Positions 42,232 to 61,109 of a DNA stretch of 64,000 nucleotides are shown here, in pieces (the stretch's first letter is position 1; each line of letters starts with the position of its first letter). The translations under genes were made by a program, and so were the position numbers. Source of the DNA: a virus; the IMG/VR virus record IMGVR_UViG_3300031251_000003, positions 64,001 through 128,000 of that record; one strand, given 5' to 3'. The notes below the pieces were generated by a model, which did no database searches, was not told where the DNA came from, and saw only the letters and a list, made by a program, of their open reading frames with translations.

Positions 42232-42260
42232 TTGACACAGGCGAAGAATTTTGGTATACT
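42232..42260 (+). promoter_or_regulatory. promoter at start of RNA array
   Basis: TTGACA-17-TATACT. Confidence 0.85.
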
Positions 42261-42275
42261 GTAGTAGATGAGTGA

Positions 42276-42347
42276 GTCCCTATAGCTGAGTGGATTTAGC
42301 GGCGGTCTTCTAAACCGCATACGAGGGTTCGAATCCTTCTAGGGATA
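42276..42347 (+). tRNA. tRNA-Arg(UCU)
   Basis: Cloverleaf; GCGGT-CTTCTAA-ACCGC. Confidence 0.9.
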
Positions 42348-42393
42348 TAGAATAAGGTGGTTCGACTCCATGAAAGTCCGGCGAAAATTCTTC

Positions 42394-42422
42394 TTGACAG
42401 CAAGATCGTCAAGTGGTATCAT
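42394..42422 (+). promoter_or_regulatory. sigma70-type promoter
   Basis: TTGACA-17-TATCAT. Confidence 0.75.
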
Positions 42423-42701
42423 GTAGTTAGCAAGAAAGGGTTCCTCCGGTCGAAAGACTATGAGCCTTGTAGGTGTCGGGTGACCAGCCTGCTTGGTGAT
42501 TGGATGCAAAACCGGGAAGTGTCGATCCAGACTCTAATATCCTCCGCGAGAGGGTGGCGAGGAAGGGGAGCTTCGTAGGGGAGTAGAGAGAATCCTTCCG
42601 TATTTTGGAGAATAGACTGTATTGACGTGGGCGCACGGAACGACGACCATTCGTGGTATGCTAACCCTAGCCCCGTCAATAGAGTCTAGGCTCTATTTTA
42701 T

Positions 42702-42774
42702 GCTGTCCATCGTCTAATAGGAAGGACTCCGGCCTCTGCCGGGAACGGGAGTTCGATTCTCTCTGGGCCTAAGC
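42702..42774 (+). ncRNA. tRNA-like RNA with 4-nt anticodon loop and bulged acceptor
   Basis: D and T arms intact; CCGGC-CTCT-GCCGG. Confidence 0.6.
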
Positions 42775-42778
42775 AGAA

Positions 42779-42864
42779 CTAAGATTGAGGATCCCGGAAA
42801 CGTCTTTTAAAACTGCTCCATCGCTAACATCGTTGGGGTGAGCGAAAGCTGGGGGAGTCTTAGT
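42779..42864 (+). ncRNA. orphan RNA motif copy 1 (GAAACGUCU/AGCGAAAGC)
   Basis: Repeated motif with covarying stems. Confidence 0.65.
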
Positions 42865-42878
42865 GATGAGCATAACTT

Positions 42879-42950
42879 GGGGGATCAGTGCTAATGGGGA
42901 AACGTTGCGCTTGCACCGCAAAGAAAAGAGTTCGACTCTCTTATCCTCCA
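42879..42950 (+). tRNA. tRNA-Ala(UGC)
   Basis: Cloverleaf, G3:U70. Confidence 0.88.
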
Positions 42951-43048
42951 CTGCAAGGAAGAAGAGTAGGTTGAGGGACGACGAATCCCAAAATTACCCG
43001 AATCGATGAATCCTTTGAGGGTGTACGGGTCGTGCCGTTACCCAATAC

Positions 43049-43120
43049 GGGCGGTTAGTGCTAGTGGGAACACGCCGGTTTTGCATACCGGAGTCAGGAG
43101 TTCGACTCTCCTACTGTCCA
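43049..43120 (+). tRNA. tRNA-Ala(UGC)
   Basis: Cloverleaf, G3:U70. Confidence 0.88.
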
Positions 43121-43286
43121 TATGAAAGCTGATGCGGGATATAAGATGGTGGTAAGAAGGGGTACCGCACCAAATGAGTAGCCACCTTAAGCTTTCAGAA
43201 TTGCCGATGCCATTAGATCAGGTGGCTTAAGCAACAGCGGAACCTGCTAAAGTGGTTCGCGGGCAACCGGCGACAGGTTGCAACAT

Positions 43287-43358
43287 GGGCGAGTAGTTCA
43301 GCGGGAGAATAGCTGCTTTACACGCAGAAGATCGTAGGTTCGATCCCTACCTTGCCCA
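43287..43358 (+). tRNA. tRNA-Val(UAC)
   Basis: Cloverleaf. Confidence 0.88.
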
Positions 43359-43365
43359 CTACATA

Positions 43366-43543
43366 TTAGATTTGAATTAGCTGGCGAACCCCTTGACCGG
43401 GGTTGTGATGGGTTCGATTCCCAGGTGAGCGTGGTTGCCATGCGAGAGCCGTCAGTGAAGTTGAGTCATTCGGGATAGATCTCACGGTTACACTATTATT
43501 CTTAAATAATGGTAGTGTGTTGGTTCGAGTCCAACGGTCTAGC
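43366..43543 (+). ncRNA. tRNA-like RNA with two T-arms
   Basis: TGGG-TTCGATT-CCCA and GTTGG-TTCGAGT-CCAAC; ends pair. Confidence 0.55.
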
Positions 43544-43626
43544 CCCTATGTACCGCTGGAAGCCGGAAACGTCTCCGATGATACTTTAATCTAGGATATA
43601 GCGAAAGCTGGCTGAGGTATTAGGGC
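43542..43626 (+). ncRNA. orphan RNA motif copy 2
   Basis: AGCCG-GAAACGTCT...AGCGAAAGC-TGGCT. Confidence 0.65.
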
Positions 43627-43919
43627 GTCTTTGAATGACTTTATCTTAGACCGGAAGCGAATATGTACGGAGTCAAGCGTGACATATGGCTAACTCTAGT
43701 TGTCTCTAGAACTTGACAGAAGGAGACAACGTGGTCTTATACGGCGGTCGAGTCCCATTAAGTTGGGATTCCCGCCACCAATTTGAAACACCCGCTCCGG
43801 GGTAGGAGGCGTGAACTAGCGTAACTAGTTCGGAGGCTACTTGATCCTAATCGTAGCAGGGTTCGCCCTAAACAGCGTAATCAAGCGTGGTTAGCTCTAA
43901 CGGGTTAATCACGCTCCAT

Positions 43920-44002
43920 ACCCCGCTGGTGAAATTAGGTAAACACGCAGGTCTTAGAAATCTGTGCCGCGAGGCTTACGAGTTCGATTCTCGTGTGGGG
44001 TA
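43920..44002 (+). tRNA. tRNA-Leu(UAG)
   Basis: Cloverleaf with variable arm. Confidence 0.88.
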
Positions 44003-44219
44003 CTTGGGGTGAGGTAGTCGTTGTCCGGGATAGCTTCCTAAGGAATAGGCTAGCGCTGGCTGATTTGCGTAAATCTGCACACCCTAAAACTTGAGTAAGG
44101 GCGAAGTCTGCTACATGCAGCAGATAGGTTAGCTTGTGCCGTGGTGTAAGGAGCCTGGGGTCATAGAATCCCGACAGACCCTCTGTATTTCTTCCATTAC
44201 CGTGATGGTAATGTGTAGG

Positions 44220-44456
44220 ATGTCTGGATACGAAAGAGAACAACAAAAAGAAACTCAGTACACCGATACGGCGGATTTCCCCCGTTACTCTGACTATGCT
44301 GGTTTTAGTTCTTATTCTTATCCTACCTATCCTGCTCAGAGTCGAACGTACGTCGTTCAAACTAGTAATTGGGATCAGACACAAGACTACACCGCTTCTG
44401 GTCTAGCTGCTACTCAAGCAACCTGGACAAGAACTGAACTGCATAACACTAATTAG
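44220..44456 (+). CDS. hypothetical (possibly virion) protein
   Basis: MSGYEREQ...; Y/T/S-rich. Confidence 0.55.
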   Translation: MSGYEREQQKETQYTDTADFPRYSDYAGFSSYSYPTYPAQSRTYVVQTSNWDQTQDYTASGLAATQATWTRTELHNTN

Positions 44457-44464
44457 AGGTTAAC

Positions 44465-45076
44465 ATGGCTAAGAGAAAGTTTGACGATAAGGCTACGTGG
44501 CGCACCGATACTTGGGGTATCGATATGACCCAGCCTGCTCGTGCCGAGCGCGTATTTGACCCTAACGATACCGTTACCGATGATCCCACTAAGGGTGGAA
44601 TCGCTGGTTCTGGTGATAATACCAAGGTCACTCATGCTGCTGGTGTTATGTACACAGGATTGAATGATAATCCGGCTGTCGCTGTAGCTCGTGCATACGA
44701 CGATTTCCAGAATCTTACTCCTGCTGTAACTGCGACTTTGACAACATCTTTAACGGGCGCGAACAATGACGTGACTTTCAGTGCTCTTCGTTCCGGTGCA
44801 TCAGGAAACGCAATATCTGTAACCTATGTCGATCCAGGTGGTGCTACTGCTACTCTTGGGGTAACAGTCTCCGGTACCGATATCACGGTCAACCTAGGTC
44901 GAGCAGCATCAGCTATTAACACCACAGGTACGTTGCTCATCGCAGCAGTACAGGCAGTTCCCGCAGCAGCGGCATTGGTCAATGTGGCCAACGCAGCAGG
45001 TAATGATGGAACTGGTCTAGTAACTGCTTTGACTAAGACGAACCTTGCTGGTGGTTTGGAAGCTTTCTACTCTTAA
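44465..45076 (+). CDS. virion structural protein, paralog of 31..612
   Basis: RBS GAGGT; shared Ala/Thr/Gly-rich domain. Confidence 0.65.
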   Translation: MAKRKFDDKATWRTDTWGIDMTQPARAERVFDPNDTVTDDPTKGGIAGSGDNTKVTHAAGVMYTGLNDNPAVAVARAYDDFQNLTPAVTATLTTSLTGANNDVTFSALRSGASGNAISVTYVDPGGATATLGVTVSGTDITVNLGRAASAINTTGTLLIAAVQAVPAAAALVNVANAAGNDGTGLVTALTKTNLAGGLEAFYS

Positions 45077-45079
45077 CGC

Positions 45080-45108
45080 TTGACAGCCAGTACCCTGTGT
45101 GATATAAT
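45080..45108 (+). promoter_or_regulatory. sigma70-type promoter with palindrome over -10
   Basis: TTGACA-17-TATAAT; CCTGTGT-GATATAAT-ACACAGG. Confidence 0.85.
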
Positions 45109-45142
45109 ACACAGGTAAGGGAAAACGACAGAAAGGATTCCC

Positions 45143-45499
45143 ATGGCACTTTCAGCAGCAGAGCGCGAGACAGTGATTGTCATCTCGGATGCAGACGACT
45201 TCTGGACTATCCATACTTGTCAGCGCCGGATGGTGACCCAGCTTCTCAAGAACCCGGTCGCCAAGATCCTTGAGAACACCCTCTTCGAGGGTACTCGGTT
45301 CCTCGTTGCTGAGGTTCCTGCGAATGGTATCACTGTTCGCAAGTCGAACGGTCGCAAGGCCAAGTCTTCGCAGCCGCGTAAGGCGACTCTCCGGACAATG
45401 CCGGGTGAGAAGTGCGGCGGCACCAAGTCTGATGGAAGTAAGTGCGGTGCAATCGCAGTGAGTGGTACGGGGTTCTGCCGCCATCATCAGAGCAAGTGA
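45143..45499 (+). CDS. hypothetical protein with C-terminal CCCH Zn finger
   Basis: RBS GAAAGGAT; C...DGSKC...FCRHH. Confidence 0.75.
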   Translation: MALSAAERETVIVISDADDFWTIHTCQRRMVTQLLKNPVAKILENTLFEGTRFLVAEVPANGITVRKSNGRKAKSSQPRKATLRTMPGEKCGGTKSDGSKCGAIAVSGTGFCRHHQSK

Positions 45500-45644
45500 A
45501 GTGCAGTTGAAGTGAAGTAGTAGTTGAAATTGTAGTTAGTCTTCTTGGGAGGGTCAGGAGTCGGTTGTGTCCTTCGATCTAAGGAGGTATACAAATTACG
45601 ACTAAGGTAGTAAGAGGGACTCCTGACCCTCACAGGGGACTTTA

Positions 45645-45719
45645 CGGGTGTGTAGCTAAGCGGTTCAAGGCAGGGGACTCTTAATCCCAAGATCACAGGT
45701 TCGAATCCTGTCACACTCA
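45645..45719 (+). tRNA. tRNA-Lys(CUU)
   Basis: Cloverleaf. Confidence 0.9.
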
Positions 45720-45726
45720 TCTAAGC

Positions 45727-46027
45727 ACGGTGGATAGGAACTATCCGCAGGAGCGATACGAGGATACAAGACCGATCAGGGGCCACTGTGAGGTCTTCTC
45801 TACCTCTGGCAGGGTCGCGGTGGGTACTAACTCATCTAGTGTATATGCCGGTCTTAGCCCGAATGCAGATGTTTCAGCGTATACATCTAGTAGGGCTTTA
45901 CTTTGTAACACCCCTCTCAAGTACACGGAGGAAGGATACGAACGGTACGCAGCCAAAAGGGTCTGCCATATTGAGAACCGAGTAACAATGCTCAATACTT
46001 ACCTGATTTAATCAGGTATTTTACCGT
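45727..46027 (+). ncRNA. large orphan structured RNA
   Basis: Ends pair; several internal complementary blocks. Confidence 0.55.
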
Positions 46028-46061
46028 CATCCGTCTGGTCGTACCGGGATGACGTTAGAAA

Positions 46062-46147
46062 CTCCAAGTGGTGGAATTAGGTATACACGTCAGGTTGAGA
46101 GCCTGATGGCCATCGCGGTCTTGCAGGTTCAAATCCTGTCTTGGAGA
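46062..46147 (+). tRNA. tRNA-Leu(GAG)
   Basis: Cloverleaf with variable arm. Confidence 0.9.
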
Positions 46148-46169
46148 TCTCTTACAGGAGGTAAGAAAT

Positions 46170-46298
46170 ATGAATCCAATCTTTTGGCTTCTCTTGATTC
46201 TCTTGATTGTCATCCTTTTGGGTGGAGCAGTATTCAGCCATCTAATCTGGGTATTGATCATTGTAGTTGTCATCCTTTTCTTCCTCTTCGGAAGGTAA
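46170..46298 (+). CDS. 42-aa hydrophobic peptide
   Basis: RBS AGGAGGT; MNPIFWLLLILLIV... Confidence 0.65.
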   Translation: MNPIFWLLLILLIVILLGGAVFSHLIWVLIIVVVILFFLFGR

Positions 46299-46346
46299 GT
46301 CATGGCCGTTCCCTATTCTTATGCGGTCTGGGGTAACGGCCACCAT

Positions 46347-46419
46347 GGTTCTCTAGCTCCAACGGTAGAGCGGCTGTTTGAAGCACAGCGCGTTGGCGGT
46401 TCGAATCCGTCGGGAACCA
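46347..46419 (+). tRNA. tRNA-Phe(GAA)
   Basis: Cloverleaf. Confidence 0.9.
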
Positions 46420-46591
46420 CTGTAGTCGAAGATCCAAGAGCCTCGCTCCACTAAAGTTGGCTGTCTTATAATACAGCACCGGAAGAGAAACTCAAGGGGA
46501 GACGAAATTACGGAGACAAATAGATTAAGCTCCGTAAGATTTATGTTCTATCCTGATGCGTGAATGTTGATCACTAACAAAAGGAGAGAAC

Positions 46592-46792
46592 ATGAAGACA
46601 GCAGTAGGTACTGAAGATCTAACAGGCGCAGTAGTGGTTGATGTTGGCTACAATGATGTGACTCTTGAGAAGGATGGAGTCAGGTTTACTCTTGAACTTG
46701 AGTATGAAGCCGACTACAACAGTTTCTGCGAAGGTAGTTGCTCTTGTTGTGGTAGTTCTGGCTCATCGTACTTCCGGGCCTATAAGGAATAA
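46592..46792 (+). CDS. small Cys-rich hypothetical protein
   Basis: RBS AAGGAG. Confidence 0.65.
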   Translation: MKTAVGTEDLTGAVVVDVGYNDVTLEKDGVRFTLELEYEADYNSFCEGSCSCCGSSGSSYFRAYKE

Positions 46793-46842
46793 AGAATCGT
46801 CTGTCACGCCGGATCCTGACGTAAAACTTAGTCCGGCCACAT

Positions 46843-46915
46843 GGCTCTATAGACTAGTTGGTTAGGTCGCTACCCTCTCAAGGTAGAAGTCGGAGTTCGA
46901 GTCTCCGTAGAGCTA
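46843..46915 (+). tRNA. tRNA-Glu(CUC)
   Basis: Cloverleaf. Confidence 0.9.
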
Positions 46916-46919
46916 CTAT

Positions 46920-46998
46920 GATCACGCAGCCACAGGGCAGGGCGCGGCGACCCGACACTTTCTCGGGGAACATGGAGGTTCGAATCCTCTCGGGATCA
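46920..46998 (+). ncRNA. aberrant tRNA-like RNA
   Basis: T-arm and acceptor present; extra nucleotides before anticodon arm; loop CACTTTC lacks U33. Confidence 0.5.
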
Positions 46999-47230
46999 CT
47001 GTGGGATAGAAAGGGCAACAAAGCGATATAACTTGACGCATCAGGGAGAGTTAGTCCCCTACTATCCCCCTATACTTTAAGAACGTGTGTGTGACGCTGT
47101 GACGCAGCAGAGGCACACTTTCGGGCGGGGGCGTCACCCCACGGTACCGGCGCGGTTTGGGACAACCGTTGTAAGACGACCGGAGGCGGCTTAGCGGCTG
47201 CTGAGAGGGTTCTCAAATGTTCTTATACTA

Positions 47231-47301
47231 TGGCGTATCGTTCAACGGCAGGACGGGTGGCTGTTAACCATCTAATTCAGGTTCGAATCCTGGTATGCCA
47301 G
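47231..47301 (+). tRNA. tRNA-Asn(GUU)
   Basis: Cloverleaf. Confidence 0.9.
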
Positions 47302-47372
47302 CTTTAAATTCGTAGGGCACTACTCGCTGGTCGGACTAGTTTGCTGGCGAGCAACCCTACGGCGCGTTTCAT

Positions 47373-47443
47373 TCCCCGGTCGTCTAACGGTAGGGCAGAT
47401 GGCTGTTAACCATCGTATGAGGGTTCGATTCCTTCCTGGGGAG
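47373..47443 (+). tRNA. tRNA-Asn(GUU)
   Basis: Cloverleaf. Confidence 0.9.
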
Positions 47444-47607
47444 CTTCGCAGTACATTGTTCGTCGTCCGGGAGCATCGCGAGGCATAACGGGTAGCTCAG
47501 GGTTAAATTCCCTGATAGGGCGGCTAGCCCTAGACTGAACGTATTGATCCTTACTTGTTAAAGCGGGTTTGGGGAATGTGGCAATGTATTGCGCCGGTTT
47601 TAATCGT

Positions 47608-47648
47608 CGCGGATTAGAGAAAAGGTCATCTCGTGAGTCTCATAAACT
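47608..47648 (+). pseudogene. orphan 5' half of tRNA-Met(CAU)
   Basis: Acceptor 5' strand, D arm and anticodon loop, then HNH gene. Confidence 0.7.
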
Positions 47649-47652
47649 TTTC

Positions 47653-48048
47653 ATGAGTTTACGAACACTAATAGTAGAGATGCCATACAAAGATCCCGAA
47701 AAACAGAAAGAAGCACAGGCTAGATTAAGTGCTGCTTATTATCAAAAGAATAAGAAAAAGATGAAAGTTCGTGCAAAGCAGTATACATACGAACATCGAG
47801 AACGTCTTAAGCAGTTTTTGATAGAGATAAAGTCTGCTCCATGTATGGACTGTGGAAATTCGTTTCCATCATGTGTAATGGACTTTGATCACCGTGAGGG
47901 TGAAGAGAAAAACGGTTGTGTGTCTGTAATGGTGAACCGCGCACTAAGCTTAGATAGAATTAAACAAGAAGTATCTAAGTGCGACCTAGTATGTGCGAAC
48001 TGTCATCGGATTCGAACCTCCACGCGGAAACAAGCCCTGGTGGGCTAG
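47653..48048 (+). CDS. HNH homing endonuclease (start at 47653 or 47680)
   Basis: CMDC..MDFDH..KCDLVCANCHRIR. Confidence 0.88.
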   Translation: MSLRTLIVEMPYKDPEKQKEAQARLSAAYYQKNKKKMKVRAKQYTYEHRERLKQFLIEIKSAPCMDCGNSFPSCVMDFDHREGEEKNGCVSVMVNRALSLDRIKQEVSKCDLVCANCHRIRTSTRKQALVG

Positions 48049-48096
48049 GGAGTCTCATAAACTCTCTCATGGTCAGTTCGATTCTGACTTCCGCTA
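48023..48096 (+). tRNA. tRNA-Met(CAU), overlapping HNH 3' end
   Basis: CGCGGAA/TTCCGCT acceptor with 1:72 mismatch; GGAGT-CTCATAA-ACTCT. Confidence 0.7.
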
Positions 48097-48250
48097 TTTC
48101 AAAATGCAACTAGGCCGACATAGTTGCGCCATATGGTGAAATGATCGGCATACAATTCTGTCTAACCTAGATAGGAGCGCAAATAATCATGAAGTAAGTT
48201 ATAACCTTTGCTCGTATTTGAAGGTTAAATGATTATTCCGCATATACGTG

Positions 48251-48357
48251 AGACGAATGCCGCAGAAGCCGGAAACGTCTAGCAGGGTCAAGTCCGCGAT
48301 AATCAGCTTGATGCATTCCCTGTGAATACAGCGAAAGCCGCCGCCGAGGTTGAGTCT
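48251..48357 (+). ncRNA. orphan RNA motif copy 3
   Basis: GAAACGTCT 48272, AGCGAAAGC 48330. Confidence 0.55.
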
Positions 48358-48494
48358 GGATTACAGTGTATGTGATTATATGATATGATTTTAAGTTTGA
48401 TTCATCTTGACTGTGGAGCCGAAAGCTGAGAAGCAGATCAAGAAACTAATGTAGATACATCGAGGGGTCGCGCATCTCTAACACGCGAATATTT

Positions 48495-48584
48495 GGATAG
48501 GTACTCAAGAGGCTTAAGAGGATGGTTTGCTAAACCATTAGAGGATGTCAAAGTCCTGCCAGAGTTCGAATCTCTGTCTATCCG
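48495..48584 (+). tRNA. tRNA-Ser(GCU)
   Basis: Cloverleaf, long variable arm. Confidence 0.9.
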
Positions 48585-48655
48585 TGTAAGACGATCCGAA
48601 GACGATGGGAACGTACGCGCATATCATGCGTGGTGACAGTCTATTCGAGGATCAG

Positions 48656-48728
48656 TGAATTGTAGCTCAACGGTTAGAGCGTTCCCTTCATATGGGAAAG
48701 GTAGTCGGTTCGACTCCGATCAATTCCA
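48656..48728 (+). tRNA. tRNA with CAU anticodon (Met or Ile2)
   Basis: TTCCC-TTCATAT-GGGAA. Confidence 0.8.
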
Positions 48729-48816
48729 TTAAAGAGGATGGTAGCCGATAGGTTGGCGTGGGTGTGCTGATTCGGTGAGATGGTTCGTCCTGCCTCATAA
48801 GACCACGCGAGAATTT

Positions 48817-48903
48817 GGATATATGGCTGAGTGGATTAAAGCGCTAGTCTTGAAAACTAGTATGTGTGAAAGCGCATCCGGGGTTCGAATCCCTGTGTAT
48901 CCG
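48817..48903 (+). tRNA. tRNA-Ser(UGA)
   Basis: Cloverleaf, long variable arm. Confidence 0.9.
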
Positions 48904-49083
48904 TAGGATGGTTTACGACGTGGTAGTGTACGTTTGGCGCTTAAGTGCGTTCTGGCCGAGAATCAAAGGCATCCATCCTTGGGGTTAGAGACTTAGGATT
49001 CTGAGGCGAGCAACCTGAAATGGTAAGGAACGAATAACCGTTGCTGCGGCCTGTCGTTCAAACTGGATCAAGTCTCTTCTTTT

Positions 49084-49170
49084 GGAAACGTGGCCGAGAG
49101 GATTAAGGCGCAGACCTGGAAAGTCTGTTGGTATTTACGTGCTACGCAGGTTCGAATCCTGTCGTTTCCG
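49084..49170 (+). tRNA. tRNA-Ser(GGA)
   Basis: Cloverleaf, long variable arm. Confidence 0.9.
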
Positions 49171-49175
49171 CTCAT

Positions 49176-49310
49176 GGGGTGAAAATGGAGAGTCGTCTAG
49201 TTCGATTCTAGACTTGTGGATGGTTCCACGGCGGTTCAATTCCGCGTTATAAACTTGTGGCAGCAAATAGGGTAGCCCCCGCTCAGAGGGTTCAATTCCC
49301 TTACACTCCA
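49176..49310 (+). ncRNA. tRNA-like RNA with three T-arms and G3:U70 acceptor
   Basis: Three TTCRATT hairpins; GGGGTG/CACTCC-A. Confidence 0.6.
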
Positions 49311-54000: not shown

Positions 54001-54073
54001 CCCTCCATAGCTTCAACGGTAAAGCACGGGCCTTTTAAGCCATGAGTTCTGGGTTCGAATCCTAGTGGGGGGA
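54001..54073 (+). tRNA. tRNA-Lys(UUU)
   Basis: Cloverleaf; imperfect anticodon stem. Confidence 0.78.
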
Positions 54074-54150
54074 CTTGAGATCTAGGGTGTGGGTTATACG
54101 TCCACGTTTCCTTATAGGCGATGCGCTCGGTAGTGTCGTGATCTCTATTA

Positions 54151-54223
54151 GCCCTCTTAATTCAGTGGACAGAATGTTAGCCTTCGAAGCTAAACGTCGG
54201 GAGTTCGAATCTCTCAGAGGGTA
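54151..54223 (+). tRNA. tRNA-Arg(UCG)
   Basis: TTAGC-CTTCGAA-GCTAA. Confidence 0.88.
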
Positions 54224-54237
54224 TCTAGAAAGAAGAC

Positions 54238-54266
54238 TTGACAACCAGACAACAATGAGGTATACT
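54238..54266 (+). promoter_or_regulatory. sigma70-type promoter
   Basis: TTGACA-17-TATACT. Confidence 0.8.
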
Positions 54267-54272
54267 TAAGCC

Positions 54273-54491
54273 GTGGCTAAGAAACACAAGCCGAAGGAAA
54301 AGACTGAAACGAAGTTTTCGAAGTATCTTCCCGGCGAGAGTACATGGACGGGACGACGCAATAAGACGAGGCAGGATCTAATCCCAATGGGTCAACGTGA
54401 TCGCGTTGAAACAGCACAGAAGATCAGATCCTTCTCGATGCAGCATAAGCCATCTTGCACTAAAGATTGGCTGAAGTTGCGAGTACATTGA
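54273..54491 (+). CDS. small basic protein (leaderless)
   Basis: GTG 6 nt after -10. Confidence 0.55.
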   Translation: MAKKHKPKEKTETKFSKYLPGESTWTGRRNKTRQDLIPMGQRDRVETAQKIRSFSMQHKPSCTKDWLKLRVH

Positions 54492-54653
54492 TAACTTAGG
54501 TGGTGGTACCGGGAACCCCGATCCGGTGACGCGGAAGCGTATGGTGTAAGGGTTATGCACGCCACATGTACTAAGCCTTGGGATGCGATTCTCAAGGTAC
54601 CCTTTCTAGCAGGGGATGTGCCTGGGCACCGCTCCAGAGCCAGCTAGATGTAA

Positions 54654-54727
54654 CTGGATGTAGGAAAGCTTGGTAATCCGTCTGCTTTGGGAGCAGAAGA
54701 GCGTGAGTTCGAATCTCACCGTCCAGA
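54654..54727 (+). tRNA. tRNA-Pro(UGG)
   Basis: Cloverleaf. Confidence 0.9.
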
Positions 54728-54730
54728 CTG

Positions 54731-54939
54731 AAGAGTTAGGAGGTTGGCCTAAAGGCAGCCACCCTTTAAAGAGTAGACTTACGTGAGCCGACCACGCTGA
54801 GCGAAAGCCTATTTGAGAGTCATGATCGCGCAAAGGTGACAATGATCCCGCGCCCGGAATGGCAACATGACGAAGACCAAGGAAACGACTTGGAAGAATA
54901 AACGGGTTAGTCTTTTGGCGTAACAGCACACTATCTCTT
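54731..54939 (+). ncRNA. 23S rRNA GTPase-associated-centre (H43-H44) mimic with 143-nt insert
   Basis: TAGGAGGTTGGCCTAAAGGCAGCCACCCTTTAAAGAGT...GCGTAACAGCACACTA closed by AAGAG/CTCTT. Confidence 0.85.
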
Positions 54940-54949
54940 TTAGAATTGA

Positions 54950-55024
54950 CTGGATATAGCTCAGCCTGGTTAGAGTACGCCCTTGGGGAGGGTGAGGCCG
55001 CAAGTTCGAATCTTGCTATCCAGA
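54950..55024 (+). tRNA. tRNA-Pro(GGG)
   Basis: Cloverleaf. Confidence 0.88.
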
Positions 55025-55027
55025 TAA

Positions 55028-55098
55028 CAGGATGTTGTATAGTGGTAATATACTTGCTTCGGGAGCATGAGTCAGAGGTTCGAGTCCTCTCATCCTGA
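55028..55098 (+). tRNA. tRNA-Pro(CGG)
   Basis: Cloverleaf. Confidence 0.85.
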
Positions 55099-55154
55099 TA
55101 TGTACTAGCTTTCTTATGGTGATCTCGCCCTACTAATGGGTAGGTGATAAATAA

Positions 55155-55322
55155 ATGAGACAACATATAGAAGGTGGATTACTTTCATTCTTAGGATTAT
55201 GTGCTGCTGCTCTCTTCTTTGGTCTTCTCGTATTTGGAGGATCCATTAGCGATTGGCCATTAGAGGTAGCAGGCTTCTTTGCTCTAGCTATTGCGTTCGT
55301 TCTGGAACGCTTAGGGTTGTAA
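55155..55322 (+). CDS. 55-aa membrane peptide
   Basis: MRQHIEGGLLSFLGLCAAALFF... Confidence 0.6.
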   Translation: MRQHIEGGLLSFLGLCAAALFFGLLVFGGSISDWPLEVAGFFALAIAFVLERLGL

Positions 55323-55557
55323 GACTCCGCTGGAATGCGGCGCATAGGGAGGTTCTTCGAGCCGTTGATCTATGTGATGGTGGAAACCGTGCCCGTTGAG
55401 CCGGGTAAAGGTACGACTAGCCATCGTATCGAAAGCGTAGGGCAGCGCGGTTGTAGCTGGTGGTGAGGGCGCAGCTATGGTATGGCTAAACGCCGAATCG
55501 TTCGAAGCGACAAGGCTTACGGGGTTGGTAATTCTCACGACTTGCCGATCCCGCCAA

Positions 55558-55629
55558 TGCGGTGTAGTCTAATGGTAGTGACTTCCGGCTCTGAACCGGA
55601 CAGTGTTGGTTCGAATCCAGCCTCCGCAG
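55558..55629 (+). tRNA. tRNA-Gln(CUG)
   Basis: Cloverleaf. Confidence 0.88.
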
Positions 55630-55919
55630 CTAACTCTAACGAGTAACAAGTGATTACAGCCGCTGATTGCCACGAGCGGTAAAGGATGGTCTTTTATGCC
55701 GGACGCTAGAATATGGCAGGTATAAAACTAAGTGTGTGGGTACCCGTAGCAATCACAGCCGCCGTTTTGTAATCCAGGATGTGGATTGTCGAGGTATGGT
55801 ATAGACACCACTTCTAGAAATCCACCATACATGCGCTACCTTGGAAAGGTGTAACGGTTCATAACCTGCCTTTCCTCCAATCCCCACTTAGGCTGAAATA
55901 TACCTAGGTGGGGAACCAA

Positions 55920-56000
55920 GCATATGTTGAGCAAAGGCTAGCTCCGCTGTCTGTAAAACAGCCGTCTCCGACTATGTAGGTTCGAATCCTACCATATGCA
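55920..56000 (+). tRNA. tRNA-Tyr(GUA)
   Basis: Cloverleaf with variable arm. Confidence 0.85.
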
Positions 56001-56004
56001 CTGA

Positions 56005-56076
56005 TGGGAAATCGGTTAATGGTTAAACCAAGAGCCTTTGAAGCTCTGACTTTGGGTTCGAGTCCCAATTTCCCTA
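56005..56076 (+). tRNA. tRNA-Gln(UUG)
   Basis: Cloverleaf. Confidence 0.85.
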
Positions 56077-56113
56077 TAGGTCAAGCTGGTGGGCCTGAAG
56101 CACTAGCATTTAC

Positions 56114-56187
56114 GGAAGCGTAGCTCAGTTGGTTAGAGCACCGGCCTGTCACGTCGGTAGTCGCGGGTTCGAGTCCCGTCGTTTCCG
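56114..56187 (+). tRNA. tRNA-Asp(GUC)
   Basis: Cloverleaf. Confidence 0.93.
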
Positions 56188-56418
56188 CTCTTTGGACGAT
56201 GACCTGTGGAAGGATTTATGCCAAACTTCCTAAAGGGTAAAAAGCTAGCGAGTAAGGCGAAGCTGGGGCACCACAAAATGCGTCAGTGGATGAAAGCTAG
56301 CGAATCAAGCTGCTGTAGGCATAACGGTAGTGTAATGAGCGAGTCTAACTCAAGTATTTTCGCTCCACCGTCCAAGGTTTTAAGTTGACCAATCATAATT
56401 TGTATGATATACTAAGTC

Positions 56419-56592
56419 ATGGTTACTAAAACGGACATAAAAACTCTTGAATTCGATGTAGATGGGAAGACAATCGAGCTTCAAGTTAAATGTGAGTTGG
56501 TTAGTAAAACTTGGAAACTTACGATTAATTGTAAGGATCCCGGTCGTGTTGAGTTTGAAACCATCATGAGTAAGATGGGTGTTATAAGATAA
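56419..56592 (+). CDS. hypothetical protein (leaderless)
   Basis: TTGACC-17-TATACT then ATG 5 nt later. Confidence 0.6.
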   Translation: MVTKTDIKTLEFDVDGKTIELQVKCELVSKTWKLTINCKDPGRVEFETIMSKMGVIR

Positions 56593-56596
56593 ATAA

Positions 56597-56672
56597 CGGG
56601 GTGTGGTGTAGTCCGGTCTAACACGCTTGCCTGTCACGCAAGAGAACGAGGGTTCAAATCCCTTCATCCTGA
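56597..56672 (+). tRNA. tRNA-Asp(GUC)
   Basis: Cloverleaf. Confidence 0.85.
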
Positions 56673-56742
56673 TTGAAGATCGTCTAAAGTAGGACGCCTG
56701 GTTTAACGGGAGATTCTAGAGGTTAACGTCTCTGGCTTCAAA
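56673..56742 (+). pseudogene. degenerate tRNA-like element
   Basis: Acceptor and D arm; non-consensus T loop. Confidence 0.4.
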
Positions 56743-56748
56743 ATACTT

Positions 56749-56823
56749 GCCTCGTTGGTCTAGCGGTCTAGGATACCGGGTTTTCACCCCGCGTGAACAA
56801 GGGTTCGAATCCCTTACGAGGTA
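56749..56823 (+). tRNA. tRNA-Glu(UUC)
   Basis: Cloverleaf. Confidence 0.85.
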
Positions 56824-56835
56824 CCTTAATAAAAA

Positions 56836-57167
56836 TTAGACACCAGGGTTTCAGAGCAAAGCGGTAGCTCCGAGCGCTCTTATGAGATCTTGGGTGTTGT
56901 GACGGAAAAGTGCCTATCTTGCTTCCGCAAAGCGGTGAGCTAGGTATTGAACGTATAAGCGGCGAAAGCTCTGGGCAACCGGAGCCGGTAGCAGCCGAAG
57001 TAAAGGAATCGAAACCAGCGGCTTAGCGGCTGAGGGACTAGGTTCTGGGCGGGGGTTGTACCTCGTACAGTGGTGGCTCGACAGGGCAGCGGAAGTAGAA
57101 GAGAAACCATATGACAAGGTAGCTTGCCTCTTCTTGCGGGATACCAAGACCCGCCAACACAGTCTAA
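56836..57167 (+). ncRNA. large orphan structured RNA
   Basis: Ends pair; long-range complements; GNRA hairpins. Confidence 0.55.
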
Positions 57168-57207
57168 ATCTTGGGGATGTTTGGGTAAAACTGAGCATCC
57201 CCACCAA

Positions 57208-57283
57208 CCTTCAGTAGCTCAACGGTAGAGCGGTACGCTGTATGGAAGCGTTCGGGTTGCGAGTTCAATTCTCGTCTGAGGGT
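57208..57283 (+). ncRNA. tRNA-like RNA with enlarged anticodon arm
   Basis: Canonical D, T and acceptor; 4 extra nt in anticodon arm. Confidence 0.65.
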
Positions 57284-57348
57284 CTTCTCGCTCGACACTC
57301 CCCTCCTAGGCCAATGATCTAGCCCGTGGGAAAGTGCGGCGAGTTCTA

Positions 57349-57421
57349 GCCAGCCTCGTATAACGGCATATTACACCGCACTTGTAATGCGGGTATTTCG
57401 GTTCAATTCCGAAGGTTGGCT
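57349..57421 (+). tRNA. tRNA-Thr(UGU)
   Basis: Cloverleaf. Confidence 0.88.
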
Positions 57422-57526
57422 CTCGTGTGTGGAAATGAAACTATGTGACGAGCGCGTTCCGGCATAGAAGTAGTGGCCTTTCTGGGTTCGAGTCCCAGCA
57501 CCGATTTATCAAAACAAGGAGGCACT

Positions 57527-57880
57527 TTGCTGAAATGGCTAAAGTTGCCGATACTAACTGTACTAATCCTAAGTAGTTTGGGAAATCTCAGGACAAACGG
57601 CGCTAAAGCTGTCTCAGTTCGTAGTCTCACTGTTTTAGAGACTGCCTATTGTCTTAGGGGAACTATGGCCAACGGCCACTATGTTCACCCTGGGGCAATA
57701 GCGGTTGATCCAAGAGTTATTCCTATGGGATCTCGTATCTTTGTCCCCGGCTATGGTTGGGGAACAGCAGAGGATACGGGTGGTGCAATTATCGGCTATC
57801 ATATCGATGTATGGATGAGCGATTGCTCACAAGCTATGAGATCTACCCGATGGAATGTACGGATCAAAATTTCACGTTGA
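57527..57880 (+). CDS. secreted 3D-domain (MltA-like) cell-wall protein
   Basis: TAY..AVDPRVIPMGS..AEDTGGAI..IDVW; RBS AAGGAGG. Confidence 0.88.
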   Translation: MLKWLKLPILTVLILSSLGNLRTNGAKAVSVRSLTVLETAYCLRGTMANGHYVHPGAIAVDPRVIPMGSRIFVPGYGWGTAEDTGGAIIGYHIDVWMSDCSQAMRSTRWNVRIKISR

Positions 57881-58017
57881 GTGGGAAGGTAACAAATATA
57901 GGTGGCATTTGGGGCCAAATGGCTATGCCGAAATTACTAGAAGAGTTAGCTAAATGTGATGTTGTTTGTGCTAACTGCCATCTTCGTAGACATCATTCCG
58001 CGTTGTTCGTAGACTAA
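57880..58017 (+). pseudogene. HNH endonuclease C-terminal remnant
   Basis: EELAKCDVVCANCHLRRH, no N-terminal half. Confidence 0.75.
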
Positions 58018-58076
58018 TTGGTTAAGTCCCTACCCTGTGAAGGTAGCCTATACGGGTTCGAATCCCGCCGAACAAC
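58002..58076 (+). tRNA. tRNA-His(GUG)
   Basis: G-1:C73; CTACC-CTGTGAA-GGTAG. Confidence 0.85.
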
Positions 58077-58143
58077 TCAAGGGGATCTCCTTGATATGCC
58101 GTGGTTCGTCGGTTACGAATTCTTGGAGCAAGATCCCCTCCAT

Positions 58144-58257
58144 GCAGCAGTCGCTTAAGTGGGAAAGCACCTACTGATAAAGAAGTCTCCATGGTTATAG
58201 ACCGGTCAAACGGTGGAGATTTGTAGGAGATCATTGGTTCGAATCCAGTCTGTTGTT
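58144..58257 (+). ncRNA. tRNA-like RNA with large insertion in anticodon arm
   Basis: Acceptor, D and T arms canonical; CCTAC/GTAGG enclose ~48 nt. Confidence 0.7.
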
Positions 58258-58261
58258 CTTT

Positions 58262-58336
58262 GAGAGATTAGCATAATTGGACTAATGTTCCAGGTTGTGA
58301 TCCTGGCTAATTTCGGTTCGAATCCGAAATCTCTCT
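58262..58336 (+). tRNA. tRNA-His(GUG)
   Basis: CCAGG-TTGTGAT-CCTGG. Confidence 0.78.
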
Positions 58337-58429
58337 TGCCTTGATAACCCCAGTCGCTTCGGCGGCTCCGAGATAGGCACGGAATGAAACAGACCATTGG
58401 GAGCAGATGGCTTTAGCCGATCTGTTTTC

Positions 58430-58502
58430 GCCTGAGTAGTGATAACGGTCAGCACACATCCTTGGTAAGGATGGAGTTTGGGTTCGATTCCCAGCTTGGG
58501 CT
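58430..58502 (+). tRNA. tRNA-Thr(GGU)
   Basis: Cloverleaf. Confidence 0.9.
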
Positions 58503-58503
58503 T

Positions 58504-58635
58504 ATGAGTAACTTCAAACGCAAGAAATCAAGACGTTCGGTAAAGTGTACCATGTGTACACCATTTAGATGGTTAGGAAATACCAAAGAACGGCGACCCT
58601 TTAAAGACCGTCGCCAACTTCAGAAGGAGGAATAG
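58504..58635 (+). CDS. 43-aa basic CxxC peptide
   Basis: MSNFKRKKSRRSVKCTMCTPFRWLGN... Confidence 0.55.
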   Translation: MSNFKRKKSRRSVKCTMCTPFRWLGNTKERRPFKDRRQLQKEE

Positions 58636-58637
58636 CA

Positions 58638-59366
58638 TTGGCAGCAGTTGATCAGGCAATCTATGTTATCATCGATGGCAGTGGCTCGATGAGTAGCGTG
58701 AAGCATGATGTAGTCAAGGGCATTAACGATTTCATTACGGAACAGCAGGACGACATCAAGGGCACACAGGATGTTGTGTTGTTTTCTCTGACATCCTTTG
58801 ACACGAATGTCCAGGAAATCTACGTGAGAGAGAATCTAGAGCTAGTCAATCCTGTCTCTTTGAAGGATACTTACTTGGGCGGTGGTACATCTCTTCTAGA
58901 TGCTATTGGCCGTACACTGACTAAGGCTGAGGATGAACAGGCTGATCGTAACATCGTCGTGATCTATACCGATGGTGGCGAGAATTCAAGTCATGAGTTC
59001 ACTAAGACTCAGGTTGGTGATTTGATCGACAAGCTGACTGGTACAGGAGATTGGCAGATCATCTATCTCGGTGCTGAGTTTGCCGACTTCGCAGAAGATC
59101 GTCAGGGCTTTGGTGCTATTGCTGGTGCCGCAGCGGGTGGTACCTTTACTGGTATGAACACGTCGAAGAATGATGTTGGTGCCACGTTCTCTAACCTGTC
59201 CCAGACATCCATCTATTACAGAGGGATGCACACCAATTCTGCTAAGAATCTTGTTGCTCGCGGTGGAGTCGTGGCCGCAGCAGCGGAGGATATTGGCCTT
59301 ACCTGGAACGAGGATGACACAACGGTTATTCCGGCCGATGTAGTGGAACCTAAGAAGAAAGCCTAG
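58638..59366 (+). CDS. von Willebrand factor A domain protein
   Basis: MIDAS DGSGSM, GGTSLLDAIG, YTDGGENSS, YLGA. Confidence 0.9.
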   Translation: MAAVDQAIYVIIDGSGSMSSVKHDVVKGINDFITEQQDDIKGTQDVVLFSLTSFDTNVQEIYVRENLELVNPVSLKDTYLGGGTSLLDAIGRTLTKAEDEQADRNIVVIYTDGGENSSHEFTKTQVGDLIDKLTGTGDWQIIYLGAEFADFAEDRQGFGAIAGAAAGGTFTGMNTSKNDVGATFSNLSQTSIYYRGMHTNSAKNLVARGGVVAAAAEDIGLTWNEDDTTVIPADVVEPKKKA

Positions 59367-59407
59367 GGGAGAGGACGCCATCTGCTCTCTAAAAAATGAT
59401 GGCACTA

Positions 59408-59478
59408 GCCAGTTTAGTATAGTGGGAATACTCGCCTTTCGTAAGGGCGAAACTAGGGTTCGATTCCCTAATCTGGCT
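59408..59478 (+). tRNA. tRNA-Thr(CGU)
   Basis: Cloverleaf. Confidence 0.85.
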
Positions 59479-59514
59479 CTGCTTATCAGGCGCGTCCCGG
59501 TAGCTCCGGGTTAA

Positions 59515-59586
59515 GAGCGTGTAGTTCAGCGGGAGAACGTCTGGGTGACAACCAGAAGATCGTAGGTTCGATTCCTACCATGCTCA
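59515..59586 (+). tRNA. tRNA-Val(GAC)
   Basis: Cloverleaf. Confidence 0.88.
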
Positions 59587-59654
59587 TACGGCCCTTGTGG
59601 GGTCCAAAACAATACAAATTCTATTTAGATCTGAAAGGGATAAGGTGAATAGAT

Positions 59655-59843
59655 ATGAAGACTCGTTGGATGATTATTCCGACCGTGGTGGCCCTTTTAG
59701 GTATGATTGTTGTGTTCGTAGTCGGGTATCTTACTTACGGTATTTGGGCCGGTTTCTTTGTTTCTATTCTTTTCGGAGTTATTAGCTTGATTCTTCTCAT
59801 CTGGGCTGCTATAATGGATGGAGAAGATAATACGCATGTATAG
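59655..59843 (+). CDS. small membrane protein
   Basis: Two TM segments. Confidence 0.6.
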   Translation: MKTRWMIIPTVVALLGMIVVFVVGYLTYGIWAGFFVSILFGVISLILLIWAAIMDGEDNTHV

Positions 59844-59906
59844 CAAAGTTGGTATTGCGCTTCCTTGCCATGGAAGAGGCCACGAGTTCGAGTCTCGTTA
59901 CATGCT
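59834..59906 (+). tRNA. tRNA-Gly(GCC)
   Basis: Cloverleaf. Confidence 0.88.
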
Positions 59907-59910
59907 TTAC

Positions 59911-59982
59911 GCACCAGTAATGTAGTGGTTAACATGACAGTCTTCCAAACTGTATACCAGAGTTCGAATCTCTGTTGGTGCA
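59911..59982 (+). tRNA. tRNA-Gly(UCC)
   Basis: Cloverleaf. Confidence 0.88.
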
Positions 59983-59986
59983 TCGT

Positions 59987-60059
59987 TGCTCCGTAGATTA
60001 GAGGACAAATCACTTCCCTGCGAAGGAAGAAATCACGAGTTCGAATCTCGTCGGGGCTA
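59987..60059 (+). tRNA. tRNA-Arg(GCG)
   Basis: CTTCC-CTGCGAA-GGAAG. Confidence 0.85.
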
Positions 60060-60097
60060 TAGTTCAGCTAACACCGATTTATGATATAATAGGTATC

Positions 60098-60422
60098 TCA
60101 GTAGATGGACATACGCTGCATCGTGTATCTATCGGTGTAGAGGAAGTTCGGGACATCCTTCTAGGGGAGCCAAGGAACCTAGAGAAAAACGTGCGGCAGT
60201 AGTGGGAGTCAGGTGCATTGGGTAAACCTTCGGGCATAATGCGGTGCTATCACCCTCCTGACGCCTTACCACGAGAATCGGCGGGATGCGATCACAAGCA
60301 GATACATCAGCTACGATGATATCGGGTAGTGAGCAGCCCTTCGGGGCCAGGGATTGAACAGACCCTGAGATAGATGTATGTCGCCCTTGACAGGGTACAA
60401 AATTCCGGCTATAATCTACTGA
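60098..60422 (+). ncRNA. rnpB: RNase P RNA
   Basis: P1 TCAGTAGAT/ATCTACTGA, P2 GACATAC/GTATGTC, P4 GAGGAAGTTCGGG and ACAAAATTCCGGCTAT; TATAAT just upstream. Confidence 0.85.
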
Positions 60423-60432
60423 AGCAATGTAC

Positions 60433-60504
60433 GGCGATAAGCCTGCGGTGGGCAACTTCTCTCATAAGGAAGTCTGAGGTAAGGTTCGATTCCTACTATC
60501 GCTA
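60433..60504 (+). tRNA. tRNA-Met(CAU)
   Basis: CTTCT-CTCATAA-GGAAG. Confidence 0.75.
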
Positions 60505-60506
60505 CT

Positions 60507-60767
60507 ATGAGCAAACACAACAAAACCAAGATCGAAAAGGTACTAAGGAACGAAGTCAACGTACTACGTTTCAAGCCGAAGACAGATCCTAAGGACTCTA
60601 AGCCAGAGAAGAAGATCGGCAAGTTCGCTAACTGGTGTCGTCTTCAGGGTCATCCTGCAACGTGCGGGTGTGCCTATAGCAAGATCGAAATCTCGGCTAA
60701 GAACCATCCAGTTAGTAATGGAGACTGTGTTAACGGCAGAGACTGCCCTAACCACCCGAGAAGGTAG
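60507..60767 (+). CDS. small basic Cys/His protein
   Basis: 86-aa ORF starting 2 nt after tRNA. Confidence 0.55.
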   Translation: MSKHNKTKIEKVLRNEVNVLRFKPKTDPKDSKPEKKIGKFANWCRLQGHPATCGCAYSKIEISAKNHPVSNGDCVNGRDCPNHPRR

Positions 60768-60781
60768 TGTACCCAATCTAA

Positions 60782-60853
60782 TCCCTTGTAGGTTAGAGGA
60801 TAAACCAGTGGTTTCCTAAACCACAATCCCGAGTTCGAGTCTCGGCAGGGGGA
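60782..60853 (+). tRNA. tRNA-Arg(CCU)
   Basis: Cloverleaf. Confidence 0.88.
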
Positions 60854-60855
60854 CT

Positions 60856-61056
60856 ATGAAAAGAAAACTAAAGTGCAGCACTTGTGGCACCACGACAAAT
60901 ACAGCTACAGGGAAGCCTTTGTATCTGTTAGGTTCCAGTGATGCGTCTCTAATGCTTCTTCCCGCTGAGATAGAATGTTGGGAATGTGGGGAGAAGAGAC
61001 GCGATGCCGATCAGAAGAGAAAGACCTTAGATCGGTACGCTAAGGCAAAATCTTAG
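60856..61056 (+). CDS. small Zn-ribbon protein
   Basis: CSTC..CWEC. Confidence 0.65.
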   Translation: MKRKLKCSTCGTTTNTATGKPLYLLGSSDASLMLLPAEIECWECGEKRRDADQKRKTLDRYAKAKS

Positions 61057-61070
61057 AATACGGTAAATCC

Positions 61071-61109
61071 AGCCCGGATGAGAGAAAATCTCATCCGGGC
61101 TTTCCTTTT
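61071..61109 (+). terminator. terminator closing the RNA array
   Basis: AGCCCGGATGAGA-GAAAA-TCTCATCCGGGCT-TTCCTTTT. Confidence 0.85.

Follow-up and report, generated by a model that had tools for sequence, protein, structure and literature searches.

The DNA analysed here, hereafter the window, comprises bases 64001-128000 (64,000 nt) of a 158,106-bp IMG/VR virus record, with ~47% G+C, and at 42232-61109 it contains a phage 'translation island': 45 canonical transfer RNAs (tRNAs), one non-canonical tRNA and a transfer-messenger RNA (tmRNA), with interleaved protein genes. ARAGORN recovered 46 tRNAs at 42276-60854, all on the + strand and serving 20/20 amino acids with isoacceptors often adjacent, and Rfam agrees; one of them has a 9-nt anticodon loop, and thus 45 canonical forms remain, the very number that an earlier reading of the letters (hereafter the sequence-only reading) had given for this strand. 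The 18,579 nt of this array proper divide into tRNA (18.8%), tmRNA (1.8%), degenerate tRNA-like elements (1.4%), well-supported protein genes (26.6%), putative small open reading frames (ORFs; 7.6%), conserved non-coding blocks (4.7%) and unassigned non-coding sequence (38.4%), while the space between the tRNAs sums to 14.5 kb. Depending on whether the putative small ORFs are added to the well-supported genes, the protein-coding share of the array is 27-34%.

The clearest of the non-coding elements reproduces a piece of the ribosome. In bacteria, helices H42-H44 of 23S ribosomal RNA (rRNA; E. coli 1051-1108) form the GTPase-associated centre (GAC), a 58-nt domain that binds uL11 and thiostrepton. 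A free-standing copy of this centre, 209 nt long, fills the gap between tRNA-Pro(tgg), 3 nt upstream, and tRNA-Pro(ggg), 10 nt downstream. The Rfam large-subunit (LSU) model matched independently in the window (54734-54791) and in L001 (11923-11971), the only relative found in IMG/VR, in each case at model positions 1096-1145 (E. coli ~1056-1105). This is not part of a full-length 23S gene: the match is confined to model positions 1091-1152 and its flanks are tRNA genes. Our own R1 model of the 43-position 5' core scores 62.8 bits (E 5.7e-16), a match by construction because the window sequence was in its training set, and the independent support for the identity is therefore the Rfam match. 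Scanning the genome with R1 revealed no second strong copy. As in the rRNA domain, the mimic has H43 with A1067, the U1082-A1086 pair, H44 with A1095, a closing H42 and a base triple, all of which covary; unlike the rRNA domain, it stands free among phage tRNA genes, has C instead of U at position 1065 and carries a ~125-nt insert between the junction and H44, in which no sarcin-ricin-like motif was detected. We found no published description of such an RNA in the literature, and Rfam 15 does not contain the family.

Searching viral contigs with an H43-loop pattern retrieved 27 loci, that of L001 included and none in a 23S gene, most of them situated in tRNA arrays on contigs of 41-462 kb. The covariation set comprised 24 non-redundant sequences, and pair types are quoted for columns that the search pattern left unconstrained. 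The H43 helix and its 9-nt loop with A1067 are present throughout, with 98.8% of cells paired. The basal pair of H43 alternates between GC (9), UA (9), AU (4), CG (1) and UG (1), and the equivalent of U1082-A1086 between UA (11), CG (6), AU (5) and UG (1), with a single sequence unpaired; 0/500 shuffles attained the observed covariation score. The window further contains the H44 hairpin with A1095, the ACAC segment and a strand complementary to the 5' flank of the element, and L001 has the same parts with compensatory changes. In 15 loci a single H44 motif, ACAC and a complementary strand could be placed, giving total lengths of 142-435 nt. Within these, H42 strands pair with their own partner at a mean of 7.6 of 9 positions, as compared with 4.5 +/- 1.6 when loci are mismatched. 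The triple 1072/(1092-1099), which exists in rRNA, occurs as C1072 with C1092-G1099 in nine loci and as U1072 with U1092-A/G1099 in six; positions 1072 and 1092 are thus concordant in 15/15 loci, and this known triple is compensated. The rRNA mimic that had been listed among the spacers is hence confirmed, by the LSU match and by covariation.

The flanks of the mimic bear on the proposal that tRNAs act as punctuation, releasing the RNAs between them. Besides the Pro-mimic-Pro arrangement of the window, at least 8 of the 24 loci of other phages have a tRNA whose end lies 0-41 nt upstream of the mimic, and many copies have no adjoining tRNA. Punctuation therefore fits the anatomy of this element, but its extension to one polycistron conflicts with the six internal promoters described below. 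A second, diverged core (32 bits) was observed at 5783-5824 of L004, an unrelated phage contig, directly 3' of tRNA-Pro(tgg), the same neighbour as in the window.

In total, at least seven conserved non-coding modules reside in the gaps, and for a subset of them selection for structure is clear. Comparison with the related phages L038, L039 and L040 showed several units to be 74-87% identical to relatives whose proteins are ~43% identical, and the modules at 51.7, 49.2 and 53.4 kb, 74-86% identical to L038, occupy other array positions there. The hairpin between two tRNA-Asn genes shows compensatory changes at 6/16 pairs in three phages, with an invariant outer stem and apical loop; viral contigs yielded no further copies, and a candidate in L051, a Jiangellaceae metagenome-assembled genome, was rejected as it retains the outer stem only, about four such chance matches being expected in 596 Gb. 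The consensus fold of the block at 48223-48356 has three helices that are conserved and an apical loop that varies; L031 was dismissed as its relative, since only a 19-nt seed is common to the two, a chance match.

Orphan T-arm boxes (GGTTCRANTCC) occur at eight spacer sites, the pattern being present 37 times in the window against 0.29 expected. The hairpins lie 9-90 nt downstream of tRNAs in both the window and L001 and match real tRNAs across the T-arm itself only; they are still not called as tRNAs when the ARAGORN settings are relaxed. Together with the Asn-Asn hairpin and three degenerate tRNA-like matches, these eight sites substantiate the minihelices and tRNA mimics that had been reported. 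A further repeated motif, AGCGAAAGCC, is weakly enriched (8 matches, 2.9 expected).

Whether most spacers are self-closing structured units, as the sequence-only reading held, was assessed by folding 45 non-coding segments. Their mean minimum free energy (MFE) z-score is -1.52, with 13 below -2, as compared with a mean of -0.47 and five below -2 for segments of matched length elsewhere in the window (Mann-Whitney p = 0.001). The spacers are thus collectively enriched in structure, but with only 13/45 reaching z < -2, and 27-34% of the array coding for protein, 'most' is too strong. Two long ORF-free spacers, 43360-43919 (560 nt) and 56826-57207 (382 nt), both have z-scores near -4; neither has an Rfam family or a detectable relative, and the second lacks a counterpart spacer in L001. 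An Rfam scan of the array returned the LSU and tRNA-like matches and no RNase P family. The matches to sX4, SpF41, tRNA-Sec, plastid UTR families and tmRNA_permuted are spurious, each overlapping a tRNA, and snoRNA matches in 48096-48493 score far under their thresholds.

Among 50,697 phage records the island has no relatives at the DNA level beyond single tRNAs (Streptomyces phage tRNA matches). An actinobacterial host is probable. The order of the tRNA backbone is nevertheless common to the window, L001, L038, L039 and L040; L001 shares the tRNA order of the window and has a uS12 65% identical to that of the window. The distance from Arg-tct to Leu-taa is 4.7 kb in L040, 5.7 kb in L038, 9.5 kb in L001 and 11.2 kb in the window, a 2.4-fold difference in spacer load among phages with the same tRNA order. 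As L038, L039 and L040 keep the backbone order yet are compact, the spacer load is variable and mostly lineage-specific.

How the tRNAs mature is constrained by what the genome encodes. The sequence-only reading had placed an RNase P RNA in the array and had the phage's own RNase P excise the spacer RNAs. Neither statement held: no RNase P RNA was matched by Rfam over the array at E<=1 or over the ORF-free 5' spacers (42340-43925) at E<=2, RF00010 returned nothing at E<=10 across the whole 158-kb genome, P4 motifs of the GGAAAGUCC-type occur at chance frequency only, and the genome has no RNase P protein. In the absence of a phage RNase P, 5' cleavage of the tRNAs falls to the host enzyme. CCA is encoded by one of the 46 tRNA genes, and the phage specifies a CCA-adding enzyme (618 aa; G000 38869-39249), so that maturation needs RNase P of the host, an endonuclease for the 3' end and the phage's own addition of CCA. 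The tRNA labelled 'His-atg' departs from canonical tRNA-His, with its 7-nt loop and GUG anticodon, in its enlarged loop; the L001 orthologue has a 10-nt loop, in which ARAGORN reads a four-base anticodon (label '???'). The set also contains a tRNA-Ile with a UAU anticodon (50962-51036), an uncommon isoacceptor in bacteria, in addition to three CAU tRNAs. As had been stated, the array includes a tmRNA (52052-52377, 96 bits). Its tag is long and alike in the window and L040 (4457-4791), ...SVPDF.P..W..ESLVAA, while that of L038 is short, ADSQLALAA.

Near-consensus sigma-70 sites of the form TTGACA-N17-TATAAT number 12 in the window against 0.32 expected; six lie inside the array, all on the + strand, and three of these are positionally conserved in L001. 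Together with the terminator, whose 13-bp stem at 61071-61101 closes the island, they bear out the consensus promoters and strong terminator of the sequence-only reading. P4, within the tmRNA gene, is directed toward the downstream 64-aa ORF and tRNA-Cys.

Two proteins of the array, likewise predicted by the sequence-only reading and recovered here, concern gene expression directly. For the sigma factor, region 4 reaches 43.3 bits against 24.1 (2.6e-11), region 2 falls just below the 24-bit cut-off with 23.1 bits, and the PHROG match has a value of 6.8e-19. The second, uS12 (Pfam 2.7e-25), is a core protein of the decoding centre and does not belong to the loosely bound, exchangeable ribosomal proteins. 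The window form is ~50% identical to bacterial uS12, but its decoding-centre loops read PCKPNSA and GGIAPDLRG in place of the canonical PKKPNSA and GGRVKDLPG, with Cys replacing the first Lys of KKPNSA. L001 uS12 (10001-10384) has PKKPNSA and GGRVPDLPG, the Lys-to-Pro change of the second loop being common to both phages. The changed positions are classical streptomycin-resistance/accuracy positions, and the variant protein suggests that the host ribosome's decoding centre may be directly remodelled. Apparent uS12 matches in cultured-phage records turned out to be bacterial contaminant records. Being a bacterial-type ribosomal protein gene in a phage, the island's uS12 resembles the virus-encoded ribosomal proteins surveyed by Mizuno et al. 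2019 (PMC6375957), the main text of which does not include uS12; it differs from those described there in its alterations at the streptomycin-resistance/accuracy positions.

Table 1. Features of the translation island and of genes elsewhere in the window (positions in the window; L numbers denote related contigs).
Feature	Position	Strand	Remarks
Promoter P1	42232..42260	+	TTGACA-N17-TATACT, 11/12; 16 nt upstream of first tRNA
tRNA array	42276..60854	+	46 ARAGORN tRNAs, 45 canonical; 1/46 encodes CCA
Orphan T-arm hairpin	42356..42372	+	9 nt after tRNA-Arg(tct); conserved in L001 (~1505)
Promoter P2	42394..42422	+	11/12; counterpart L001 1549
Conserved non-coding block	42445..42600	+	77% identity to L040 452-579; substitutions without codon-phase bias
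Degenerate tRNA-like element	42703..42771	+	32 bits
Degenerate tRNA-Ala(tgc)-like pseudo-tRNA	42880..42950	+	29.5 bits; upstream of intact tRNA-Ala
ORF-free spacer	43360..43919	+	Orphan T-arms at 43411 and 43522
Two protein genes, 106 aa and 203 aa	44136..45076	+	Conserved in L001; third-position bias
Promoter P3	45080..45108	+	12/12; counterpart L001 3866
118-aa protein	45143..45499	+	phrog_1709; C-terminal Cys/His cluster; weak DUF5763 match
Asn-Asn hairpin	47313..47363	+	Between two tRNA-Asn genes; three phages
HNH homing endonuclease	47569..48048	+	3' end overlaps tRNA-Met
Conserved non-coding block	48223..48356	+	82% identity to L001 6310-6396; shared with L001 only
Double T-arm module	49225..49313	+	Conserved in L038, other array position
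Tandem duplication, 2 x 186 nt, perfect	50651..51022	+	Truncated tRNA-Ile(tat) copy left at 50776-50836
Sigma-70-family factor	51031..51549	+	Pfam, PHROG; regions 2 and 4
T-arm plus hairpins module	51708..51790	+	86% identical to L038 16544-16607, other array position
tmRNA	52052..52377	+	RF00023, 96.1 bits against 47-bit threshold; ARAGORN tag ...ESLVAA
Promoter P4	52283..52311	+	12/12, perfect consensus; inside 3' part of tmRNA gene
Two small conserved genes, 64 aa and 66 aa	52410..52985	+	66-aa ORF directly precedes uS12 in window and L001
Ribosomal protein uS12	52998..53399	+	PF00164, 2.7e-25, 88.7 bits against 22.3; 1.9e-33 to PDB 8crx_L
Closed three-way unit	53410..53508	+	z -5.3; conserved in L038 11688-11769, other array position
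Promoter P5	54238	+	11/12; followed by conserved 72-aa gene
Conserved 72-aa gene	within 54238..54491	+	Downstream of P5
GAC-mimic RNA	54732..54940	+	209 nt; free-standing copy of 23S rRNA H42-H44
GAC mimic, 5' H42 strand, H43, junction	54732-54780	+	
GAC mimic, insert	~54781-54905	+	~125 nt
GAC mimic, H44, ACAC, 3' H42 strand	54906-54940	+	
Non-canonical tRNA 'His-atg'	57208..57284	+	9-nt anticodon loop UGUAUGGAA; orthologue L001 14389-14464
3D-domain protein	57527..57880	+	Pfam/PHROGs; peptidoglycan hydrolase-like
Degenerate tRNA-like element	58144..58257	+	38.9 bits; ~41-nt insert
VWA-domain protein	58638..59366	+	phrog_7371
Promoter P6	60387..60415	+	12/12; counterpart L001 16948
Two small conserved genes, 86 aa and 66 aa	60507..61056	+	
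Intrinsic terminator	61071..61101	+	13-bp stem, 8 G-C pairs, T-tract; closes island
Rnl2-type RNA ligase	6332-7333	-	Outside island
ATP-dependent DNA ligase	7588-8763	-	Outside island
Small HD-domain protein, 134 aa	9348-9752	-	Match below HD_4 threshold

Traces of turnover accompany the conserved elements. The perfect tandem duplication takes in the 3' end of an ORF (50350-50682) together with 61 nt from the start of tRNA-Ile(tat); either it arose very recently or it is an artefact of assembly. HNH sequences are represented in the window by one intact gene (47569-48048) and one remnant (57913-57996), and in L001 by 5-6 copies (5773-6085, 6525-6587, 7840-8151, 11334-11708 and 15854-16228); without exception, the gene or remnant stops at the 5' end of a tRNA or runs into it, which suggests homing targeted to tRNA genes.

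Taken together, we consider it probable, although some way from certain, that the region is a translation island whose conserved tRNA backbone has taken up protein genes, homing endonucleases and structured RNA modules. Several host-sigma-70-type promoters would drive the tRNA/tmRNA cluster, host RNase P and a 3' endonuclease would mature the tRNAs, and the phage CCA-adding enzyme would finish their ends. The same tRNA processing probably frees the small structured RNAs in the gaps. In the GAC mimic, the two ends rebuild the uL11/GTPase-binding domain around the ~125-nt insert, and such an RNA would most likely serve as an off-ribosome decoy or sponge, its target being a protein or small molecule that binds this site. 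The remaining ~7 kb of lineage-specific spacer may be a mixture of fast-evolving RNAs and turnover debris from HNH homing, duplications and decayed tRNAs.

Several observations weigh against this explanation. Detectable conservation in any relative extends to ~0.9 kb of the ~8 kb of non-coding spacer, and several modules are known from 2-3 sequences only. Given the internal promoters, some spacers could be transcribed separately from the tRNAs on either side. L038 retains the tRNA backbone without a GAC mimic, which is hence dispensable for the island, and neither a uL11 gene nor another obvious partner was found in the genome. Finally, the minimum-energy folds of the mimic are unremarkable (z -1.0 and -0.5); since such folds mis-fold the GAC core, z-scores alone are however a poor criterion for RNAs of this kind.

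A more ambitious version, which we regard as unlikely, would make the array a tRNA-punctuated producer of trans-acting decoy RNAs (the GAC mimic, the mobile T-arm modules and the enlarged-loop tRNA) that, along with the altered uS12, reprogram host translation or shield it against defence toxins, stringent-response factors or GAC-binding antibiotics. The sequence-only reading went further still, treating nearly all spacers as a polycistronic library of orphan RNAs, cut out by a phage RNase P and serving counter-defence. The collective excess of structure, the existence of several conserved modules and the RNA ligase are congruent with such a library; yet RNase P RNA and protein are both absent from the genome searches, 27-34% of the region consists of protein genes, at least six promoters lie within it, and most of the non-coding spacer is unconserved, and spacers are much shorter in relatives that share the tRNA order. 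A spacer-filling library is therefore very improbable, and a counter-defence role of the island can for now only be inferred. Overall, what the sequence-only reading observed is confirmed in part, and its interpretation supported in part. Covariation marks the GAC mimic, compensatory pairs mark the Asn-Asn hairpin, and the other modules are conserved in relatives; most of the spacer sequence is unconserved.

It is also conceivable that the spacers are non-functional leftovers of array expansion, supplied by homing-endonuclease traffic, duplications, decayed tRNAs and a captured rRNA fragment, their structure stemming from tRNA-derived hairpins and terminators. The perfect 186-nt duplication with its truncated tRNA, the pseudo-tRNAs, the HNH remnant and many HNH copies, the 2.4-fold variation in spacer load and the 38% of unassigned sequence would all follow naturally. 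Decay can however not explain the covariation of the GAC mimic in 24 phages, including the compensated triple, and the six compensatory pairs of the Asn-Asn hairpin and the 74-86% identity of modules where proteins are ~43% identical argue in the same direction, rendering this account distinctly unlikely. We view with equal reserve the notion that the conserved spacer structures, the GAC mimic and T-arm modules among them, work in cis rather than as decoys in trans. They would then guide processing or protect the 3' ends of neighbouring tRNAs and mRNAs, perhaps through recruitment of RNase P, RNase Z or a chaperoning ribosomal protein. The mimic is often directly 3' of a tRNA, T-arm hairpins follow tRNAs at short distances in the window and L001, and genes without CCA need endonucleolytic 3' processing. 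Nonetheless, the loops that contact uL11 and factors, with A1067 and A1095, and the tertiary contacts are kept exactly, beyond the needs of a processing signal, the modules take differing array positions in relatives, and many copies of the mimic have no adjacent tRNA.

Large tRNA clusters are well known in phages. Examples are the tRNA region of T4, which also yields the small stable RNAs 'species 1 and 2', and the cluster C mycobacteriophages and Streptomyces BE-type phages, whose 30-45 tRNAs are accompanied by a tmRNA. The island resembles these in its dozens of tRNAs on one strand, tmRNA, small ORFs, homing endonucleases and embedded non-tRNA RNAs, and differs by adding uS12, the GAC-mimic RNA, conserved T-arm modules and six consensus promoters. 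tRNA punctuation is established for mitochondrial transcripts, and a tRNA-like processing signal for MALAT1 mascRNA. As there, tRNA or T-arm-like structures flank RNAs whose ends would be set by RNase P and RNase Z cuts; the island is, on the other hand, bacterial/phage and has several internal promoters. Annotation of large tRNA arrays in phages usually stops at tRNAs and 'hypothetical' filler; in this array the filler contains RNAs that are conserved and covary, among them a faithful free-standing replica of a functional centre of the ribosome. Should tRNA processing free such RNAs, and should they work in trans, they would constitute an unrecognised phage route to manipulate translation or to evade translation-targeting defences. 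The compact Pro-mimic-Pro unit offers a simple construct for processing and binding tests.

Outside the island, the RNA-repair and alarmone-hydrolase genes invoked by the sequence-only reading met with different fates. The former is represented by the Rnl2-type RNA ligase, RtcB not being found, while the latter rests on the sub-threshold HD_4 match, and no HD hydrolase of the RelA/SpoT type exceeded the threshold.

About 13-20 small protein genes sit among the tRNAs; the coding share of the array, including its HNH, 3D-domain and VWA proteins, goes unmentioned in the sequence-only reading. Between the window and L001, 11 ORF pairs are conserved at the protein level, and in nine of these third-codon-position substitutions amount to 44-52%, comparable to uS12 (52%) and the sigma factor; the picture for orf43 and orf86 is less clear. 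For ten small ORFs in the spacers, neither Pfam nor PHROG provided a family. A search of viral contigs for the 118-aa protein and uS12 returned only the contig of L001, and one for the VWA protein returned nothing. The 118-aa protein was retrieved at 14 metagenome loci, near the start of related tRNA arrays, and no other protein of the island is conserved as widely.

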